The notes under the pieces are model-generated. The model made no database searches, was not told where the DNA came from, and worked only from the letters and a program-made list of their open reading frames with translations. The translations under genes were made by a program, and so were the position numbers. From the NCBI GenBank assembly GCA_038065915.1, contig JBBTPZ010000002.1:18714-69625 (forward strand): a stretch of DNA of 50,912 nucleotides. The letters run 5' to 3'. The DNA is from Patescibacteria group bacterium. GTDB taxonomy: Bacteria > Patescibacteriota > Minisyncoccia > Phycocordibacterales > 21-14-all-36-13. This document shows positions 5,220 to 40,145 of the stretch, one piece after another; position 1 is the first letter of the stretch, and each line of letters starts with the position of its first letter.

Positions 5220-6347
5220 CTACTTTTCGTGTTCCAAAGCAATTCTTATTAATTCTTTTGCGATTATTTTTGCTGAATCGGTTTTAGCGAATGATTTTGT
5301 TGCATTTATCATATTATTTCTTTTTGTTTCATTACCCATAATTTCTTCCACCTGTGAAATAAGTATGTCATCTGAAAGATTATTTTCTTCAATAACAATA
5401 GCAGAACCGGATGAAGCATAATTAAAGGCGTTTTTTCTTTGGTGATCTCCGTTTGAATTTGTTATTGGAATTATTATACTTGGAACACCCCAAACAGCTA
5501 TTTGAAAAATTGTTGAACCGGCTCTTGAAATAATTAAATCAGCGACCCCTGCAGACATTTTCATCGCAATCGTGTTCAAATAAGAAAAAGGTTTATATCT
5601 GTTTTTATATTTACTATTTTTTAATTCTATATCTGCCAAATTTTTTACATCTGCAAAATTTTTTTCTCCTGTTTGATGAATTATTTGATATTTTTCTACA
5701 AGTTTTGGAAGCGAATCAATAATTACATTATTTATTGTTTGAGAACCCAAGGAACCGCCTATTATAAAAATTACAGGAACATCTTTTTCTAATTTTAAAA
5801 ATTCTTCTGCCCCAGTTTTTGAAGGTTTTAATAATTCTTTCCTTATTGGATTACCCGTTAGGGCCACTTTTTCTTTTGGAAAATAATTTGATGCCTCTGG
5901 ATAAGAAATAGCAATCTTTTTGGCAAATTTTCCAGCCCACATATTGACTTTTCCGGGGACACTATCTGACTCATGAATTATTAGTGGAATTTTAAAAATT
6001 TTTGATGCAAGAATTACAGGAAAACTTCCATAACCTCCTTTTGAAAAAATTACATCTGGGAAAATATTGAATACAACAAAAACACTTTTTACTATTCCCC
6101 ACCCTGTTTTAAATAAATCAAAAAAGTTCATCAAAGAAAAATATCTTCTTAATTTTCCCGCTGATATTTTTTTATATTCTATACCAAGTTCAAAAAGAGC
6201 CCTTTTATCATAAACATCCGGTGCTAAAAAAAACAAATCTGGTTCTAATAGATTTTCATCTTTAACTATTTCCCTTATTTCTTCTGCAACGGCAATAATC
6301 GGATAAAAATGTCCGCCCGTGCCTCCGCCTGTAAATACAATTTTCAT
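5220..6347 (-). CDS. murG: UDP-GlcNAc:undecaprenyl-PP-MurNAc-pentapeptide GlcNAc transferase
   Basis: MKIVFTGGGTGGHFYP N-terminus and typical MurG length (375 aa). Confidence 0.95.
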   Translation of the reverse strand: MKIVFTGGGTGGHFYPIIAVAEEIREIVKDENLLEPDLFFLAPDVYDKRALFELGIEYKKISAGKLRRYFSLMNFFDLFKTGWGIVKSVFVVFNIFPDVIFSKGGYGSFPVILASKIFKIPLIIHESDSVPGKVNMWAGKFAKKIAISYPEASNYFPKEKVALTGNPIRKELLKPSKTGAEEFLKLEKDVPVIFIIGGSLGSQTINNVIIDSLPKLVEKYQIIHQTGEKNFADVKNLADIELKNSKYKNRYKPFSYLNTIAMKMSAGVADLIISRAGSTIFQIAVWGVPSIIIPITNSNGDHQRKNAFNYASSGSAIVIEENNLSDDILISQVEEIMGNETKRNNMINATKSFAKTDSAKIIAKELIRIALEHEK

Positions 6348-6480
6348 CCTGTAGTGAAAAATGGCATCGCTCTAAAAGAGCGCGGTCATTTTTGTTGTTA
6401 ATGTTAATAAATCTTGTCTCATAAATTTTTCATTATTTTAATATCCATTCCCGAATGCCATTTTCTACTACGGGATTCAT
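6345..6480. repeat. family E long inverted repeat (CATCCTGTAGTGAAAAATGGCAT / ATGCCATTTTCTACTACGGGATTCAT) enclosing an inner hairpin
   Basis: Arms at 6345-6367 and 6455-6480 give 22 pairing positions (2 wobbles, 1 mismatch on the + strand). The left arm contains the murG start codon. Confidence 0.85.
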
Positions 6481-6547
6481 CTTATTTATTATATAACAAA
6501 ATTATCTCAAAACAAACGAAGTAAATTTGTGATATTTAATTTAAAAT

Positions 6548-6716
6548 TAAAAAATCAAAATGAAAAATAATTATCCCTTCGGGAGATCTCCCGTAGGGAG
6601 ACAATGTAAAATATTAAAGTTACTGAACAAATTTTCTGAAAGAAAATTTGCAACTAATCTTTTGTTCGCCTTCGGCGAACTCCATAACTTTACACTTTGA
6701 GATTTACACTTTGCAT
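6548..6716. repeat. family D composite repeat (~150-170 bp; modules CCCTTCGGGAGATCTCCCGTAGGG, AAATTTTCTGAAAGAAAATTT, TTCGCCTTCGGCGAA, TTTACACTTTG)
   Basis: Abuts the ftsW stop. An inverted homologous copy lies at 7826-7990 and a direct copy at 33443-33592. Confidence 0.85.
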
Positions 6717-7823
6717 TCATACCGCTTTGCGGTATTTAGATATGTTTAATATAATTCCAACGGACGCAAGAGCAAAAAACAGAGCGGTTCCACCCTTGCT
6801 TACGAATATCAAAGGCATTCCTGTTAGAGGACCAACACCAAGCATTGATGCAATATTTATACTTGATTGAGTTATTATCAATAAAATAATCCCAACAACA
6901 AGCAATCTTGCAAAATTTGTCGGGGCCCTCGAAGCAATTTTAAAACCACGAAATGTAAAAACGAGAAACAAAATAAGTAATGCGATACTTCCAACAAATC
7001 CCCATTCTTCTGCAAAAACAGCAAATATGGAATCCCCTATTGGTTCAGGTAGAGAGCTAAATTTTTGTATACTTTGTCCAAAGCCCCTACCAAACATTCC
7101 GCCGGAACCAATTGCAATAAGAGATTGTTGTATTTGATATCCCGACCCATCCGGGTCCCTTCCGGGGTCAAAATATGTTAAAAATCTATCTTTTATATAA
7201 AAATACTGTTCAAAAGAAGCAAGTATCATAACTCCTATTGATATAATTAAAATTAAACCAAGCGCGTGTTTCCAACTCCCTCCGCCAACCAAGAACATTC
7301 CTATTGCGGTTACTGCTATTACAATCAAAGTTCCCGTATCTGGTTGTGCAAGTAAGATTCCAGCAATAATTCCAACCATAATAAAAAGAGGAATAATTCC
7401 ATATTTAAGCGATAAAATTTTTGTTTTTACACCAGCAATCCATGCCGAAAAATAAATTACAAATCCTATCTTAAGTAATTCCGCGGGTTGAAATGAAAAC
7501 GGACCGAGTGATAACCATCTTGTTGCTCCGCCATGCTCAATGCCTATACTAGGAATAAAAACTAATGCTGTTAATATCAAAGAACCTAAAAATATATAAA
7601 AAGCGTATTTATTCCAAATTTTATAATTTATTTTTGAAAATAAAATGAGTGCCAATGAACCAAGGAAAACTCCCAAGAAAATTTGATTGAAGGCAACCGA
7701 AGAAAAACTTGCTCCATCTTTTGCTAATAAACCCAAAGATGCTGATGTAAAAATAAAAAGTCCACCCAAAACCATAATGGCTGTTATTAATAAAAATACT
7801 TTGTCTATTTTGTGTTCGTGCAT
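6717..7823 (-). CDS. ftsW: SEDS family peptidoglycan polymerase (FtsW/RodA)
   Basis: 10-TM profile, FtsW/RodA-like sequence, position between mraY and murG. Confidence 0.9.
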   Translation of the reverse strand: MHEHKIDKVFLLITAIMVLGGLFIFTSASLGLLAKDGASFSSVAFNQIFLGVFLGSLALILFSKINYKIWNKYAFYIFLGSLILTALVFIPSIGIEHGGATRWLSLGPFSFQPAELLKIGFVIYFSAWIAGVKTKILSLKYGIIPLFIMVGIIAGILLAQPDTGTLIVIAVTAIGMFLVGGGSWKHALGLILIISIGVMILASFEQYFYIKDRFLTYFDPGRDPDGSGYQIQQSLIAIGSGGMFGRGFGQSIQKFSSLPEPIGDSIFAVFAEEWGFVGSIALLILFLVFTFRGFKIASRAPTNFARLLVVGIILLIITQSSINIASMLGVGPLTGMPLIFVSKGGTALFFALASVGIILNISKYRKAV

Positions 7824-7825
7824 GA

Positions 7826-7990
7826 TAGAAAGTTAAAAATGCAAAAATCAAAATGCAAAGTTGTCGTATCCGCCGAAGGCGGACGAACAATTAGTTATAA
7901 ATTTTCTTTCAGAAAATTTACTCAATGATTCTAACATTTTAAATTGTCTCCCTACGGGAGATCTCCCGAAGGGATGGTCATTTTACACCT
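7826..7990. repeat. family D composite repeat, inverted relative to 6548-6716
   Basis: The reverse complement aligns module by module with 6575-6716. Abuts the ftsW start. Confidence 0.85.
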
Positions 7991-8056
7991 TGCCTGCCCC
8001 GTAGTTAAATTTGTAAAATTTATACTTCGGGGAGATTTGCATTTTAAATTTTTGTA

Positions 8057-9480: not shown

Positions 9481-9502
9481 TTTAATTGAACATAAAAAAT
9501 AA

Positions 9503-9549
9503 TCATGGATTCAAATACTCCCTTGAAACATTTGAATTTGAATCCATGA
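9503..9549. repeat. family B hairpin lying inside the last 16 codons of the carboxypeptidase CDS
   Basis: Arms TCATGGATTCAAAT (9503-9516) and ATTTGAATCCATGA (9536-9549) encode ..MDSNSNVSREYLNP*. Confidence 0.85.
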
Positions 9550-27442: not shown

Positions 27443-27482
27443 ATTATGGATTCAAACGCTCATTAAGAGCGTTTGAATTATG
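27443..27482. repeat. family B hairpin
   Basis: ATTATGGATTCAAACGCTC-ATTAA-GAGCGTTTGAATTATG. Confidence 0.85.
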
Positions 27483-27483
27483 A

Positions 27484-27514
27484 ATGAAAATTGTCGCTAA
27501 ACGACAATTTTCAT
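27484..27514. repeat. family C hairpin
   Basis: ATGAAAATTGTCGCTAAACGACAATTTTCAT. The right arm contains the dnaK TGA stop. Confidence 0.85.
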
Positions 27515-29385
27515 TTAGTTTCCGCGTCGTGTATCGTTCCATCATCTTCTTTTTTTCCTTCTTCTGGCTTTGTTTGTGTTTGCGCATTTTTTTGAATTTC
27601 TTCTCCTATTTTAGACATCTCGGAAGATAGTTCTTCTGTTGCCTTTTTAATCTCATCCACTTCATTCCTATCTTTTATTTTTTTAGCATTATCAATTTTT
27701 TCCTGTAAGTTTTTCTTTAAATCATCTGAAATTTTATCAGAATTTTCAGACAATGACCTTTCTGCGGTATAAACAACTTGGTCTAAAAAATTTCTTGCAT
27801 CCATTAATTCTTTTTTCTTTTTGTCTTCTTCTTCGTGTAATTCAGCATCTTTTTGCATCTTTTTTATATCATCTTCAGACAATCCGGATGTTGCTTCTAT
27901 TTTTATTGATTGTTCTTTTCCTGTTGATTTATCTTTTGCTTTCACATTGAGAATTCCGTTTGCATCTATATCAAAAGTAACCTCAATCTGCGGCATTCCT
28001 CTTCTTGAAGGAGGTATTCCATCCAAAACAAATCTGCCCAAACTTTTGTTGTCATTTGCCATAGGTCTTTCTCCTTGGACAACATGAATTTCAACGGATG
28101 TTTGATTGTCAGCAGCGGTAGAAAAAACTTGTGATTTTGATGTAGGTATTGTTGTATTTCTTTCAATTAATTTAGTTGCAACACTACCAAGAGTTTCTAT
28201 ACCAAAAGATAGTGGAATTACATCAAGAAGTAAAACATCTTTTACATCGCCTCTTAAAATTCCAGCTTGAACAGCAGCACCCAAAGCAACCACTTCATCC
28301 GGGTTAATTGACTTGTTTGGTTCTTTCCCGAATAAGTTCTTTACGGCTTTTTGAATCGCAGGCATCCTTGTCTGTCCGCCAACAAGAACTACTTCATCTA
28401 TATCAGAAATTTTAAATGGGGATGCTTCCATGGCTCTTTTTGTTATTTCAATTGATTTATCAATATATTCTTTAACTAAATCTTCAAGCTTTGCTCTTGA
28501 AAATTTCATTAATAAATGTTTGGGACCATCGGCATCTGATGTTATAAAAGGTATATTTATTTCTGTTTCGGTAGAACTGGACAATTCGTGTTTTGCTTTT
28601 TCAGCCGCTTCGTCCAATCTTTGTAGCGCCAAAGAATCTTTTGTAATATCTATGCCACTTTCTTTTTTAAATTCACTAGCAATCCATTTTATTATTTTTT
28701 GGTCTATATCTTTTCCGCCCATATGACTATCGCCGTCTGTTGATTTAACTTCAACCACATCATCTCCCACTTCAAGAACGGAAATGTCAAATGTTCCGCC
28801 ACCAAAATCAAAAACTACTATTTGTTCATTTTTCTTTTTATTAAAACCATAAGCCAGAGCGGCTGCGGTCGGTTCATTTATAATTCTTTTTACATCCAGC
28901 CCGGCTATTTTACCGGCATCTTTTGTCGCCTTTCTTTGTGAATCATTAAAATACGCGGGAACAGTAATAACGGCCTCTGTTATTTTTTCTCCTGTTTTTG
29001 CCTCCGCGTCGGTCTTTATTTTTTGAAGTATTATTGCAGAAATTTCTTCCGGTCTATATTTTTTATCCCCGAGTGTAATTAAAACTCCACTGTCATTTCC
29101 TTTGGTTATTTCGTAGGGGACAATTTCTTTATCTTTTTGGACTTCCTTATCGTCAAAACGATGTCCCATAAATCTTTTTATTCCAAAAACCGTATTTTTA
29201 GGGTTAGTAACCGCCTGTCTTTTGGCAGAAATTCCAACAATTCTTTCGCCAACTTTCGATAAAGCAACAATAGACGGTGTGGTTCTAGCCCCGTCAGAAT
29301 TTTCTAAAATTTTTGGTTCTCCGCCCTCAATAACGGCAAAAGCTGAATTTGTCGTTCCTAAATCAATTCCTAAAATTTTGCTCAT
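27511..29385 (-). CDS. dnaK: chaperone DnaK (Hsp70)
   Basis: [17 protein letters not shown] and [10 protein letters not shown] motifs; 624 aa. Confidence 0.98.
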
Positions 29386-30109: not shown

Positions 30110-30158
30110 ATTTTTAGTTTGTTTTTTGAAAATATATTATTGACTCAAAAACTCTACT

Positions 30159-30310
30159 GGAGCATAACACAAAAAAAATAATTATGGATTCAAATGCTCC
30201 CATGGAGCATAACACAAAAAAAATAATTATGGATTCAAATGCTCCCATGGAGCATAACACAAAAAAAATAATTATGGATTCAAATGCTCCCATGGAGCAT
30301 TTGAATTATG
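30159..30310. repeat. tandem repeat, 45-bp unit x3 plus a terminal complete family B hairpin
   Basis: Units GGAGCATAACACAAAAAAAATAATTATGGATTCAAATGCTCCCAT at 30159, 30204 and 30249. No spacers. Confidence 0.9.
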
Positions 30311-30311
30311 G

Positions 30312-30342
30312 ATGAAAATTGTCGCTTGACGACATTTTTCAT
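30312..30342. repeat. family C hairpin
   Basis: ATGAAAATTGTCGCTTGACGACATTTTTCAT, directly after the rpsI stop. Confidence 0.85.
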
Positions 30343-30807
30343 TTATCTCTTACTCCATTGAGCAGCTTTTCTAGCTTTTTTCAAACCGAATTTTCTTCTT
30401 TCTTTTGCTCTTGAATCGCGTTTCAAAAATCCCGCTTTTTTTAATTTTTTCTTATATTCCTCATTTAAAGTAGACAAAATTCTTGATAAACCGTGTCTCA
30501 CAGCTTCTGCCTGTGATGAAGTTCCACCACCTTTTACTTTTACAGAGAAAGAAAATTTTTCTTTCGGTTTTACTTTCAAAAGTGGATCTCTAACTGTATT
30601 TTGTAATTTACCTGTCTTAAAATAATCTTCCAATTTTAAATCATTAACAACAAATTCATTTTTTGCTTTCGCGTTTTCCGTTGCTCTAACAATAGCGACT
30701 GAAGTTTTTCTTCTCCCTATTTCTTGAAAAAATTTCTTTTTTATTTGTCCCAAAGTTGATTTAGGAATTTTTGTTGTTTCTTTTACCTTTTTTGTTTCTT
30801 TTATCAT
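30343..30807 (-). CDS. rpsI: 30S ribosomal protein S9 (N-terminally extended)
   Basis: GGGTSSQAEAVRHG..KKARKAAQWSKR. Confidence 0.95.
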   Translation of the reverse strand: MIKETKKVKETTKIPKSTLGQIKKKFFQEIGRRKTSVAIVRATENAKAKNEFVVNDLKLEDYFKTGKLQNTVRDPLLKVKPKEKFSFSVKVKGGGTSSQAEAVRHGLSRILSTLNEEYKKKLKKAGFLKRDSRAKERRKFGLKKARKAAQWSKR

Positions 30808-31645: not shown

Positions 31646-31663
31646 ATTATTTTTTTGTCTGTT

Positions 31664-31688
31664 GCCATTTTCTACTACGGAATCTCAT
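31664..31688. repeat. solo family E right arm (GCCATTTTCTACTACGGAATCTCAT)
   Basis: Adjacent to the rpoA stop. No partner arm nearby. Confidence 0.6.
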
Positions 31689-33342: not shown

Positions 33343-33429
33343 CCTGTAGTGAAAAATGACATTGCTCTAAAAGAGCATTGTTATTTTTGTTATTAATTTT
33401 GATAAATTATTTTTCATCCTGTAGTGAAA
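33340..33429. repeat. two direct copies of the family E left arm CATCCTGTAGTGAAA (33340, 33415)
   Basis: The first copy carries the rpsD start codon. The second opens a 16-codon upstream ORF on the minus strand. Confidence 0.8.
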
Positions 33430-33442
33430 TTTTGTTAATAAA

Positions 33443-33592
33443 TTAAAAATGCAAATCTCAAAATGAAAAATGGCAATGCAAAATGTTAAAGTTATTAAGC
33501 AAATTTTTTTTCAGAAAATTTACAATAAATTGATTATTCGCCAAAGGCGAATTCCACAATTTTACACTTTGATTTTTTAATTTTGCATTTTT
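33443..33592. repeat. family D composite repeat (lacks the GGGAGATCTCCC module)
   Basis: Aligns with 6560-6716. Its ends are mutually inverted. Abuts the rpsK stop. Confidence 0.8.
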
Positions 33593-38118: not shown

Positions 38119-39969
38119 CTATTCAAGAACCGCTTTTATTCTACGAACTCCGGCAGAAACTGCCTCTTCTTTTATAATTTTAAAATGTCCAAGTTCAGAA
38201 GTATTTTTAATATGTGGCCCACCACAAATTTCCTTACTAAAATTATCTTCGTCTTTTCCTATAAAATAAACCTTAACTCTATCTCCATATTTATCTTCAA
38301 AAACACCGGTTGCACCTATTTCTTTTGCTTTATCTAATGTCATCTCTTCAAACCAAACCGAAAGATTTTTTTGTATTTGTTCATTAACAATTTTTTCTAT
38401 TTTTTCTTTTTCTTCATCTGTTAATTTTTGTGGATGAGAAAAATCAAATCTTAATCTTTCAGCAGTAATATTACTTCCCTTTTGTTCAATATGATTTCCC
38501 AAAACAATTCTCATTGCTTGCAACATTAAATGAGCAGTTGTGTGCAATTTTTTTGTTTCCTCACTTGCATCCGCAAGCCCTCCTTTAAACATCCCAACGG
38601 ATGCGGTTCTTGATAAATCTTGATGTTTTCTCATTTCGGTATCAAACCCATCACTGGTTCTTTGCCAATCAAGAATAATACAGCGTTTAAAAACTTTTTC
38701 TAGATTTTTTAATTCTTCAAAGATCATCTCTTTTGGAAATCCGTAGGTCTGAAACAGATCAAAACACCATTTTCCACTTATTGGATGTTCTACAATTTCT
38801 TTAAGGGTTCCGGATATTTCAAATTTTTTTCTTAATTCTTTCAAACCATTTTCAAGCGTCTTTCTAAATTTATTTTCTTCAGCTTCCAGTTCTCTTTTTA
38901 TGAAGTCCTTGTTTTTTTCAATTTCTGGATAAACTTTTTTATATATTTTAATTACTGAATCAGAAAGTTTTGATGTAAAATTTTCATTTATATCAATCAT
39001 TTTTGCATATCTAACTGCTCTACGGATAAGCCGTCTCAAAACATATCCATGGCCAGTATTTGAAGGAATAATTCCTTTTTCATCTCCCAAAATCATCACG
39101 GATGCCTTTATGTGGTCTGCAATAATTCTCATTTCTTTTTTAAAATCATCATATTTTTTATTAGACAATTTTTTTATTTCTTCTATTATTGGCAACCACA
39201 ATTCTGTTTTATAATTATCACTAAATCTATTTATAACAGCCAAAGTTCTTTCGAGCCCCATACCTGTATCAACATTTTTTTGTTTGAGTGGCTCAAAGTT
39301 TCCTTCTTTTGTTTTATTGTATTGCATAAAAACATCATTCCAGATTTCTATCCATCTTTTATCATTAAAATCAAACTCACTTGGTGGCTCCACCACCAAG
39401 TCGGACCAATAAAACATTTCTGTATCTGGACCACATGGACCAGTTTCTCCTACCGGACCCCACCAATTATTTTTTTTATCTAACTCCACAATTCTTTTTT
39501 CGGAAATTCCTAAACTAACCCAATTTTTTTTTGATTCTAAATCCTTTGGTGCATTTTTGTCCCCAACAAAAATACTTATTGCTAATTTTTCAATCGGTAT
39601 TTTTAACTCCTTTATCAAAAATTCCAAACTCATTTCAATTGTTTCTTTTTTGAAATATCCTATCCCGACCCCATTTGGGTCTTTGGGGTCACCCAAAGAC
39701 CAATTTCCAAGCATTTCAAAAAAAGTGTGGTGTGTTTCATTTCCAACTTCTTCTATATCGCCTGTTCTTATACATTTTTGAACACTTGTTAATTTATTAC
39801 CCAGAGGATGTCTTTCTCCCATTAAAAATGGGACGAGCGGATGCATTCCGGCAGTTGTAAACAAAACAGATGGATCATTTTCAGGAATTAAAGATGCAGA
39901 AGAAATAATCGCATGACCGCGTTTTTTAAAAAAGTTTAAATATTTATCTCGTAATTCATCAGCTTTCAT
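38119..39969 (-). CDS. alaS: alanyl-tRNA synthetase lacking the C-Ala domain (616 aa)
   Basis: MKADELRDKYLNFFKKRGH start, editing-domain HTAHLML, and an end at ..AGVRRIKAVLE. The 27-codon ORF-track extension reads through repeats. Confidence 0.95.
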   Translation of the reverse strand: MKADELRDKYLNFFKKRGHAIISSASLIPENDPSVLFTTAGMHPLVPFLMGERHPLGNKLTSVQKCIRTGDIEEVGNETHHTFFEMLGNWSLGDPKDPNGVGIGYFKKETIEMSLEFLIKELKIPIEKLAISIFVGDKNAPKDLESKKNWVSLGISEKRIVELDKKNNWWGPVGETGPCGPDTEMFYWSDLVVEPPSEFDFNDKRWIEIWNDVFMQYNKTKEGNFEPLKQKNVDTGMGLERTLAVINRFSDNYKTELWLPIIEEIKKLSNKKYDDFKKEMRIIADHIKASVMILGDEKGIIPSNTGHGYVLRRLIRRAVRYAKMIDINENFTSKLSDSVIKIYKKVYPEIEKNKDFIKRELEAEENKFRKTLENGLKELRKKFEISGTLKEIVEHPISGKWCFDLFQTYGFPKEMIFEELKNLEKVFKRCIILDWQRTSDGFDTEMRKHQDLSRTASVGMFKGGLADASEETKKLHTTAHLMLQAMRIVLGNHIEQKGSNITAERLRFDFSHPQKLTDEEKEKIEKIVNEQIQKNLSVWFEEMTLDKAKEIGATGVFEDKYGDRVKVYFIGKDEDNFSKEICGGPHIKNTSELGHFKIIKEEAVSAGVRRIKAVLE

Positions 39970-40145
39970 CCTGTAGTGAAATTTCAAATTGTTTTCTTGT
40001 CCCGTAGCGAGCTTCGCTCTGCTACTGGGGTTATTAATTTTTAAAAACAATTCAAAACTCTGTCGTTAAATTAACTATATATTATTCTAGAACCTAATCC
40101 CGAGAAAAACAAATTAATGATTTGAAATTCTACTACGGGATTCAT
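39967..40145. repeat. family E long inverted repeat enclosing a family H element
   Basis: Arms CATCCTGTAGTGAAATTTCAAA (39967-39988) and TTTGAAATTCTACTACGGGATTCAT (40121-40145). The left arm carries the alaS start codon. Confidence 0.85.
39996..40030. repeat. family H element CTTGTCCCGTAGCGAGCTTCGCTCTGCTACTGGGG
   Basis: Near-identical to 24148-24181. Confidence 0.85.

Follow-up and report, generated by a model that had tools for sequence, protein, structure and literature searches.

Bacterial MITEs (miniature inverted-repeat transposable elements), such as the Correia elements of Neisseria (CREE, or NEMIS), ERIC and RUP, are gene-less repeats of about 100-170 nt, delimited by terminal inverted repeats, flanked by a short target duplication and present in many copies. 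Transcribed together with the genes beside them, they adopt a long hairpin fold, and they descend from gene-bearing parents possessing the same ends. Here we consider an inverted repeat that encloses the start of murG in a 50,912 nt stretch of the genome of a Patescibacteria group bacterium (GenBank assembly GCA_038065915.1, contig JBBTPZ010000002.1, positions 18,714 to 69,625 of the forward strand), termed the window, to which all coordinates refer unless a contig is named. An earlier reading, made from the sequence alone, had proposed that this structure serves as a translational switch or thermosensor of an essential cell-wall gene. The analysis reported here points instead to the terminal inverted repeats of a 129 nt MITE that has inserted on the murG start codon, rebuilt that codon at its far end and has a nuclease-bearing parent, a reading to which we attach a probability of roughly 0.86.

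Several other systems share features with this locus. GIY-YIG homing endonucleases, such as I-TevI and the Seg proteins, are selfish, either free-standing or intron-encoded, and occupy precise sites in essential genes while leaving the host gene functional. IS200/IS605 elements, together with the REP sequences and RAYT proteins, employ an HUH Y1 transposase and do not generate target duplications. The palindromic elements of Rickettsia stay in frame and are translated into additional peptide segments. RNA thermometers, such as ROSE and fourU, and other occluding leaders are gene-specific, conserved at orthologous sites and comprised of short, metastable stems. The closest published system is that of the Ssn nucleases, small site-specific GIY-YIG nucleases acting on single-stranded DNA (ssDNA), the genes of which are bracketed by genome-wide NTS/SRM hairpin repeats (Chenal et al. 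2025, PMC11893778). These repeats are 20-30 nt palindromes around genes, and the authors remark upon the layout of repeat, gene and repeat as being like that of an insertion sequence (IS) (PMC11893778). A full-text literature search found no published description of GIY-YIG elements, or of MITEs, that target start codons.

The murG gene, identified by the N- and C-terminal Pfam Glyco_transf_28 domains (both GT28 domains) of its open reading frame (ORF), extends from 5220 to 6347 on the minus strand, which is also the strand of the element features given below. The inverted repeat around its start is confirmed as a real observation: in a repeat search of the window, 6346-6367 and 6455-6476 were complementary over 22 nt (86%; 19 Watson-Crick pairs, one G-U pair and two mismatches, as read from the sequence), and the arm 22-mer had three matches at no more than three mismatches in the window as against none in 100 shuffles. 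The repeat search and comparison across the family define these segments as a left, distal terminal inverted repeat, ATCCCGTAGTAGAAAATGGCAT (6455-6476), and a right, proximal one, ATGCCATTTTTCACTACAGGAT (6346-6367), which ends with the first two bases, A and T, of the murG ATG (6347-6345); the arm therefore does reach the start codon, as had been noticed. The whole gene-less element, 129 nt in length (6348-6476), runs from ATCCCG to CAGG between two copies of ATGA, or equivalently from TCCCG to CAGGA between two copies of TGAA, such that the order on the minus strand is ...ttatataataaataag ATGA ATCCCGTAGTAGAAAATGGCAT ...87 nt... ATGCCATTTTTCACTACAGG ATGAAAATTGTA... The left ATGA (6477-6480) corresponds to the original murG start codon, as judged from the empty site aaataagATGAAAATC in the congener G002, and the present start codon to the rebuilt right-hand target copy. 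The distance between the old and rebuilt ATG is 133 nt, and the element is not in frame. The 15-codon upstream ORF (uORF) of the sequence-only reading is present as described, consisting of MNPVVENGIREWILK and a stop (6433-6480, from ATG at 6480 to TAA at 6433), with its first nine codons set by the arm; it is simply what the former murG start codon opens when read on into the element's left end. A short internal hairpin, CGCTCTtttAGAGCG (6368-6382), which holds the last uORF stop (TAG) in its loop, is common to the copies of the same subfamily (type A, defined below) in this genome.

When the murG region is folded as RNA, the long-range helix is found in both the minimum free energy (MFE) and centroid structures (-38.1 kcal/mol, z = -3.7, with none of 200 shuffles as good), and in both the A and U of the murG AUG are paired, so that sequestration of the start codon is predicted. 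The alaS copy described below folds likewise (-47.8 kcal/mol, z = -3.8). Occlusion of the initiation region, as proposed earlier, is thus upheld as a predicted helix, but as a by-product of the ends of an element. No family reached its gathering score in an Rfam scan of the whole window, and a search for an internal promoter between the arms returned one weak sigma-70-like match, fewer than in shuffled sequences.

Related genomes provide the evidence for insertion. The murG site of G002 is clean and empty (...aataagATGAAAATC, with a single ATGAAAATC), the upstream flank being the same as in this genome (...gagataactttattatataataaataag) and leading directly into ATGAAAATCGTATTTACAGGC. The congener G001 has the element at murG, with 93% identity, and both a further congener, G003, and G031, which belongs to another family, have a sister element on the murG start, with ends ATGAA[C/T]CCCGTTAGA... 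and ...TCTAAC[A/G]GG, the latter followed by [A/G]TG. At rpsD, also the site of an insertion in this genome, the start is empty in all three congeners. Among 95 paired copies from this genome and 61 other loci, the base after the ATG was identical on both flanks in 82 of the 88 that could be scored (A in 52, G in 24, T in four and C in two), with none of 10000 permutations as good, and the fifth target base was A at all 50 independent host sites. The matching fourth base and the invariant fifth A therefore give the target as ATGNA and the duplication as TGNA. Five copies have GTG or TTG as the left flank, an indication that the last base of the element itself supplies the A of the rebuilt ATG, although the search pattern fixed the right ATG in that set. 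Taken across genomes, these comparisons show insertion at ATGNA with a TGNA duplication, a rebuilt ATG and, as set out below, a nuclease-bearing parent. The word ATGNA occurs 5671 times in this genome, 259 times at called starts and 1087 times in intergenic regions; starts are expected to make up 19% of non-disruptive sites, whereas they were 19 of the 22 observed (P = 2e-11), so the word alone does not explain the placement on start codons.

The murG copy is one of many. The genome, of 545 kb in 31 contigs, with 30-36% GC and estimated as 86% complete, was scanned for the left end ATCCCGTAGTAGAA and the right end TTCACTACAGGAT with up to two mismatches in each, yielding 39 left and 50 right matches; paired copies number 30. 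At every terminal right end the completed ATG opens a long ORF, or else the left end of the next copy adjoins; in all, 19 host ORFs of at least 100 amino acids (aa) begin at right ends, including murG, alaS, rpsD (208 aa) and lepA (597 aa). Copies form tandem arrays of up to four, and several of the contig ends of this assembly fall within them. Two subfamilies have a common outer arm and differ in the inner one, this being AAATGGCAT/ATGCCATTT in type A, which includes the murG copy, and TTTCAAAT/ATTTGAAAT in type B, and type-B copies are found nested at an internal ATGA of type-A copies.

A type-B copy lies on the start of alaS (39970-40141), with its left ATGA at 40145-40142. The sequence-only reading had stated that the same arm pair, with the same first six codons, flanks the alaS start. 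The first six uORF codons are indeed the same, because types A and B share the outer arm, but only these outer arms, ATGAATCCCGTAGTAGAA and TTTCACTACAGGATG, are common to the two copies, and the alaS element is 172 nt long. The arm pair does flank the start, yet the TTG at 40050 is not that start; the true one is the ATG at 39969-39967 (MKADELRDKYLNFF), which immediately follows ...TTTCACTACAGG. In G003 (L177) and G001 (L178) an insertion of another kind lies upstream of alaS, in its start region, where the first approximately 21 nt of the gene (ATGAAGACTGATGGATTACGA and GTGAAAGCGCAAGAATTACGA) are duplicated around an insert of about 100 nt that opens with the hairpin CCCCAGT...ACGGGG. Elsewhere in the window, a partial copy consisting of a type-B right end and the right half of a type-A copy (33343-33428) ends on the rpsD start (33342-33340), and a left-end remnant, comprising ATGAG and ATTCCGTAGTAGAAAATGGCAA (31662-31688), marks the former rplQ start 1 nt past the rpoA stop, its right end having been lost.

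To gauge how widely the family is distributed, the left-arm 18-mer was searched in a species-level genome collection, giving matches on more than 111 contig stretches, with complete paired copies at 61 of these loci. Among the matches listed, all complete copies were on contigs labelled as Patescibacteria (Paceibacterota, Nomura-, Wolfe-, Zambryski- and Vogelbacteria, and 'Saccharibacteria') or simply as 'bacterium'. The 18-mer was also matched on contigs from outside the Candidate Phyla Radiation (CPR), including those of Pirellulaceae, Holophagae and Marivirga; these had no paired right end and were treated as chance matches or fragments. The 77 unique copies are 102-149 nt in length, and 19 of the 22 arm positions pair in at least 70 of them, with positions 19 and 20 co-varying (position 19 is G-C in 47 copies and A-T in 23); as positions 1-18 of the left arm are fixed by the search pattern, only the inner positions are unbiased in these statistics. 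None of these 77 type-A copies departs from A.C at position 11 and G.U at position 12, a fixed asymmetry between left and right that may act as a code for the fixed orientation. As a result, the left end, GTAGTAGAAAA, is permanently distinguishable from the right end, the reverse complement of which is GTAGTGAAAAA. The uORF varies between 10 and 46 codons over the same 77 copies, within which nothing is conserved beyond MNPVVEN(G/D)I, and the later chain of mini-ORFs is equally variable.

Full-length relatives with the same type of end carry a single gene. Six GIY-YIG matches were found in this genome, one of which (C3:66503-66862), bounded by ACCCCGTAGTAGAT and TTCACTACAGG and flanked on either side by ATGC, occupies the start of a 394 aa ORF; the nuclease gene is frameshifted in a run of A. 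When its product was used to search 301 genomes of the order, 178 had homologues; the best of these, found in G260 (L143), is intact and 89% identical to the frameshifted copy. The G260 element is about 315 bp in length and has the same ends, reading catATGA, then ATCCCGTAGTAGATTTTTGATTCGATT-ATGTTC...(96 aa)...AAAAATTCACTACAGGATGA, then aatcaa... Here the old host ATG opens a seven-codon ORF (MNPVVDF), the stop of which is followed 7 nt later by the nuclease ATG, and the TGA of the nuclease overlaps the rebuilt host ATG as ATGA. Other intact copies, with the same type of end and matching flanks, are present in G063 (L144), G153 (L147), G154 and others, and the nuclease ORFs bracketed by inverted ends encode 84-98 aa. 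The G260 protein matches Pfam GIY-YIG (E = 4.7e-19) over positions 1-72 of 78 within its 96 aa, and hence has the catalytic domain only; TIGR01453 is a weak match to the element nuclease, and, among solved structures, UPF0213 BH0048/EF2693 and Slx1 come nearest, with E values of 8e-4 or weaker. With this as its sole ORF, and no recognised DDE or HUH transposase, the element falls outside the classical definition of an IS. Such comparisons show a presumably autonomous parent of about 315 bp, with the same ends as the murG copy and one gene, for a single-domain GIY-YIG nuclease of approximately 85-100 aa.

More distant nucleases, at around 55-60% identity, have the end words GTTAGAG and GTACGAA instead, and the nuclease and end sequences therefore appear to change together. 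At the same 394 aa ORF start (MQKIKKFYFENLKK...), this genome has the frameshifted GTAGTAG-type element and G001 (L020, C19) an intact GTTAGAG-type one, with ATGC flanks in both; one start codon is thus occupied by two different family members in two congeners. Two further GIY-YIG ORFs of this genome lie in other settings. At C4:7687-7896, on the minus strand, an intact 85 aa ORF is found inside the 3' part of the 16S ribosomal RNA (rRNA) gene, followed by ...AAGTCGTAACAAGGTA..., in what looks like an rRNA insertion with its own nuclease. Another, at C14:14486-14656, has a different inverted repeat (CCCCGCCCTTTT and AAAAGGGCGGGG), ends ...GGGGTGATGA and may represent another family of the same kind.

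Among the target sites of the gene-less elements, 14 of 50 have, upstream and at exactly 7 nt from the ATG, a -10-like hexamer, defined as at least five of six matches to TATAAT including A2 and T6, in comparison with 31 of 923 background starts (3.4%; Fisher P = 7e-9), or 51 of 923 when a generous background admits any of the first three ATGs (P = 1e-6). The murG site is one of the 14, with TATAAT at 6488-6493 and a 7 nt spacer before the original ATG at 6480; this motif belongs to the host site, because the empty G002 site has it at the same spacing. The enrichment is suggestive of leaderless starts at many targets, and of a murG transcript that would begin at or near the old ATG and so include both arms. 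Leaderless starts are not the sole targets, because others lie 1-7 nt past an upstream stop, as at alaS, where the site is TAAaaataatATG, and at the former start of rplQ, TAAgATG. Shine-Dalgarno-like words were found at one of 50 targets, a rarity that is uninformative because they are also infrequent, at 6-10%, among the crudely called background starts.

A mechanism can be proposed on this basis. Elements of the family insert at ATGNA and duplicate TGNA, with the last base of the element apparently giving the A of the new ATG, and the choice of target seems biased towards starts with a -10 box at 7 nt that are likely to be leaderless. The GIY-YIG nuclease is assumed to move the element. After insertion the old start codon heads a short, meaningless uORF and the host gene would start at the ATG of the right end; ribosomes would load at the old start through the signal, whatever its nature, on which the host gene had relied. 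In the full-length form, ribosomes may start at the old host ATG, read the seven-codon leader MNPVVDF, restart on the nuclease gene 7 nt further on and return to the host gene through the ATGA stop/start overlap. In the murG copy, the rebuilt AUG would be kept accessible by translation of the left arm, or by the timing of transcription before the right arm exists; failing such opening, the stem would hide the first two bases of the AUG. Cleavage of the stem would be an alternative route, and is possible because an RNase III gene is present.

Set against described systems, the murG element resembles bacterial MITEs in its size, inverted repeats, duplication, copy number, long hairpin and parent with the same ends, and differs from those that insert at TA or random sites and have a DDE parent in targeting ATGNA, in its fixed orientation relative to the host gene, in rebuilding the start and in having a parent with a lone GIY-YIG gene. 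As in the Ssn system, a single-domain GIY-YIG gene of about 100 aa lies between its own scattered hairpin repeats, and the left end ATGAATCCCG..., with its frequent local hairpin TCCCGTA...TACGGGA, recalls the ATTCCCG...CGGGAAT of Ssn. Unlike Ssn repeats as so far described, the elements sit on start codons, have a target duplication and are found in Patescibacteria; neither 'start codon' nor 'Patescibacteria' occurs in PMC11893778. The likeness to homing endonucleases consists in a selfish GIY-YIG gene at a precise site in an essential gene that remains functional, but the element has no DNA-binding domain, intron or intein, has inverted-repeat ends and a duplication, and is found at many unrelated genes; homology-dependent homing cannot explain its spread. 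With IS200/IS605 and REP/RAYT it has in common hairpin ends, strand- and orientation-specific insertion by a short fixed word and abundant gene-less derivatives, the differences being that it duplicates its target and that its ends have no association with the genome's Y1 genes. Like the Rickettsia palindromic elements, these are small palindromic mobile repeats tolerated in or at essential genes of reduced genomes; unlike them, they are out of frame (133 nt between the ATGs at murG) and rely on a rebuilt start. The helix takes in part of the initiation codon, as in ROSE and fourU, but it is a 22 bp stem of a transposable repeat, one which a sister species lacks.

The regulatory interpretation can be weighed against the same evidence. 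A dedicated cis-regulatory RNA, evolved as a switch or thermometer for murG and separately for alaS so as to hide the start codon, would account for a helix that pairs the A and U of the AUG in both predicted structures, and for arms that co-vary at position 19. Such co-variation is, however, equally expected of transposon ends, and known RNA thermometers are far less stable than a 22 bp stem whose fold reaches -38 kcal/mol. Moreover, the same element is found at 19 or more unrelated genes, in tandem and nested arrays; it is not conserved at orthologues, murG being empty in G002, rpsD in three congeners and the murG starts of G003 and G031 having a different, sister element; it has a target duplication and shares its ends with a nuclease-encoding parent; and there is neither an Rfam match nor conservation of the interior or uORF. 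It is because of the unrelated starts, the arrays, the empty G002 site, the duplication and the shared parental ends that the arms are best regarded as the terminal inverted repeats of a mobile element, and the thermosensor or switch of a cell-wall gene proposed by the sequence-only reading is very unlikely. A co-opted mobile copy is somewhat easier to entertain, if still improbable: the 5' stem-loop, as an RNase III site or a stabiliser of the 5' end, could set the level of murG mRNA in the manner of Neisseria Correia elements. With TATAAT upstream of the left ATG, at 7 nt, the 22 bp stem would lie at the predicted 5' end of the transcript, the genome has a gene for RNase III and the copy is retained in G001, but G002 does without it, and the same pattern recurs at many unrelated genes with nothing to set the murG copy apart.

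The remaining alternative concerns the agent of movement. The repeats might be REP/BIME-like sequences moved by the IS200/IS605-type Y1 (RAYT-like) transposases of the genome, rather than by the GIY-YIG protein, considering that GTAG, the head motif of many REPs, is contained in the arms, that four Y1_Tnp ORFs of around 235 aa are present and that insertion in fixed orientation 3' of a fixed word recalls IS200/IS605. Yet in place of CCCGTAG ends these genes have unrelated palindromes on their flanks (TGTCAAACAC..., CACTTGGAAGC...), on which grounds they were rejected as the mover; G031 has sister elements but no Y1_Tnp match; the matching fourth base indicates a true duplication, which IS200/IS605 does not make; and the ends bracket GIY-YIG genes in several genomes. 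We consider this the least probable of the three. The ORFs in question (PF01797) are at C3:69760-70011, C3:75433-75660, C21:6857-7096 and C25:5891-6109, the associated palindromes including ACTTGGCGCTTCG... as well as the two above.

The murG copy therefore has each of the features by which a MITE is recognised, namely inverted repeats, a duplication, an empty site, a small, multi-copy and gene-less form and a gene-bearing parent. A number of points nonetheless weigh against the interpretation as a start-codon MITE with a nuclease-bearing parent. Mobility is argued from sequence comparison, as are the position of the transcription start, initiation at the rebuilt ATG and the relay of ribosomes; the case for leaderless targets is built on hexamer matches and crude background start calls. 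To our knowledge, a GIY-YIG nuclease alone has no known strand-transfer chemistry, and the mover could be another protein. This genome, at 86% completeness, yielded only one copy of the cognate nuclease gene, and that one is frameshifted; full independence of the target sites is doubtful where the genomes are related; and uORF layouts vary so widely that there is no conserved ribosome relay in the gene-less copies.

A broader proposal can be put forward tentatively, as a possibility that we do not at present favour: that these elements are a new class of autonomous transposon, of about 280-315 bp and with one nuclease of around 90 aa, that targets ATGNA, preferentially at leaderless-type starts, and lives by taking the initiation site of the host and returning ribosomes through the stop/start overlap, the murG hairpin being both a fossil and a coupling device that ties translation to the old start. 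If true, the class would rank among the smallest autonomous transposons, and a reason for leaderless targets might be that the single-stranded non-template strand of an open promoter complex suits an ssDNA-specific, Ssn-like nuclease. In wider biological terms, survival in a 0.5 Mb genome by landing on, and rebuilding, the start codons of essential genes is an unusual strategy for a parasite, and where Shine-Dalgarno sites are rarely used it provides a natural experiment on the way in which ribosomes locate start codons. It also suggests a possible in vivo role, in mobility, and a defined DNA target for the large and mostly uncharacterised family of tiny GIY-YIG proteins, relatives of which are site-specific ssDNA nucleases of biotechnological interest. 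For annotation, the repeats explain odd uORFs, conserved start-codon hairpins and mis-called starts in Patescibacteria, such as the TTG at 40050 in place of the alaS ATG at 39969, as well as assembly breaks at gene starts.

The window contains other small repeats. The ftsW gene (6717-7823, minus strand) is bracketed by 157 nt inverted repeats (6556-6712 and 7836-7992) that are 80% complementary and consist of small hairpin modules recurring in the rpsK-rpsD spacer, where 6520-6568 resembles 33423-33471 and 6602-6717 resembles 33474-33589. Families of 40-50 nt hairpin repeats, ATGGATTCAAATGCTC...GAGCATTTGAAT and ATGAAAATTGTCG...CGACAATTTTCAT, are found between genes at 30129-30354, 27443-27517, 24-111 and 9490-9538, and form tandem arrays of up to three 45 nt units.

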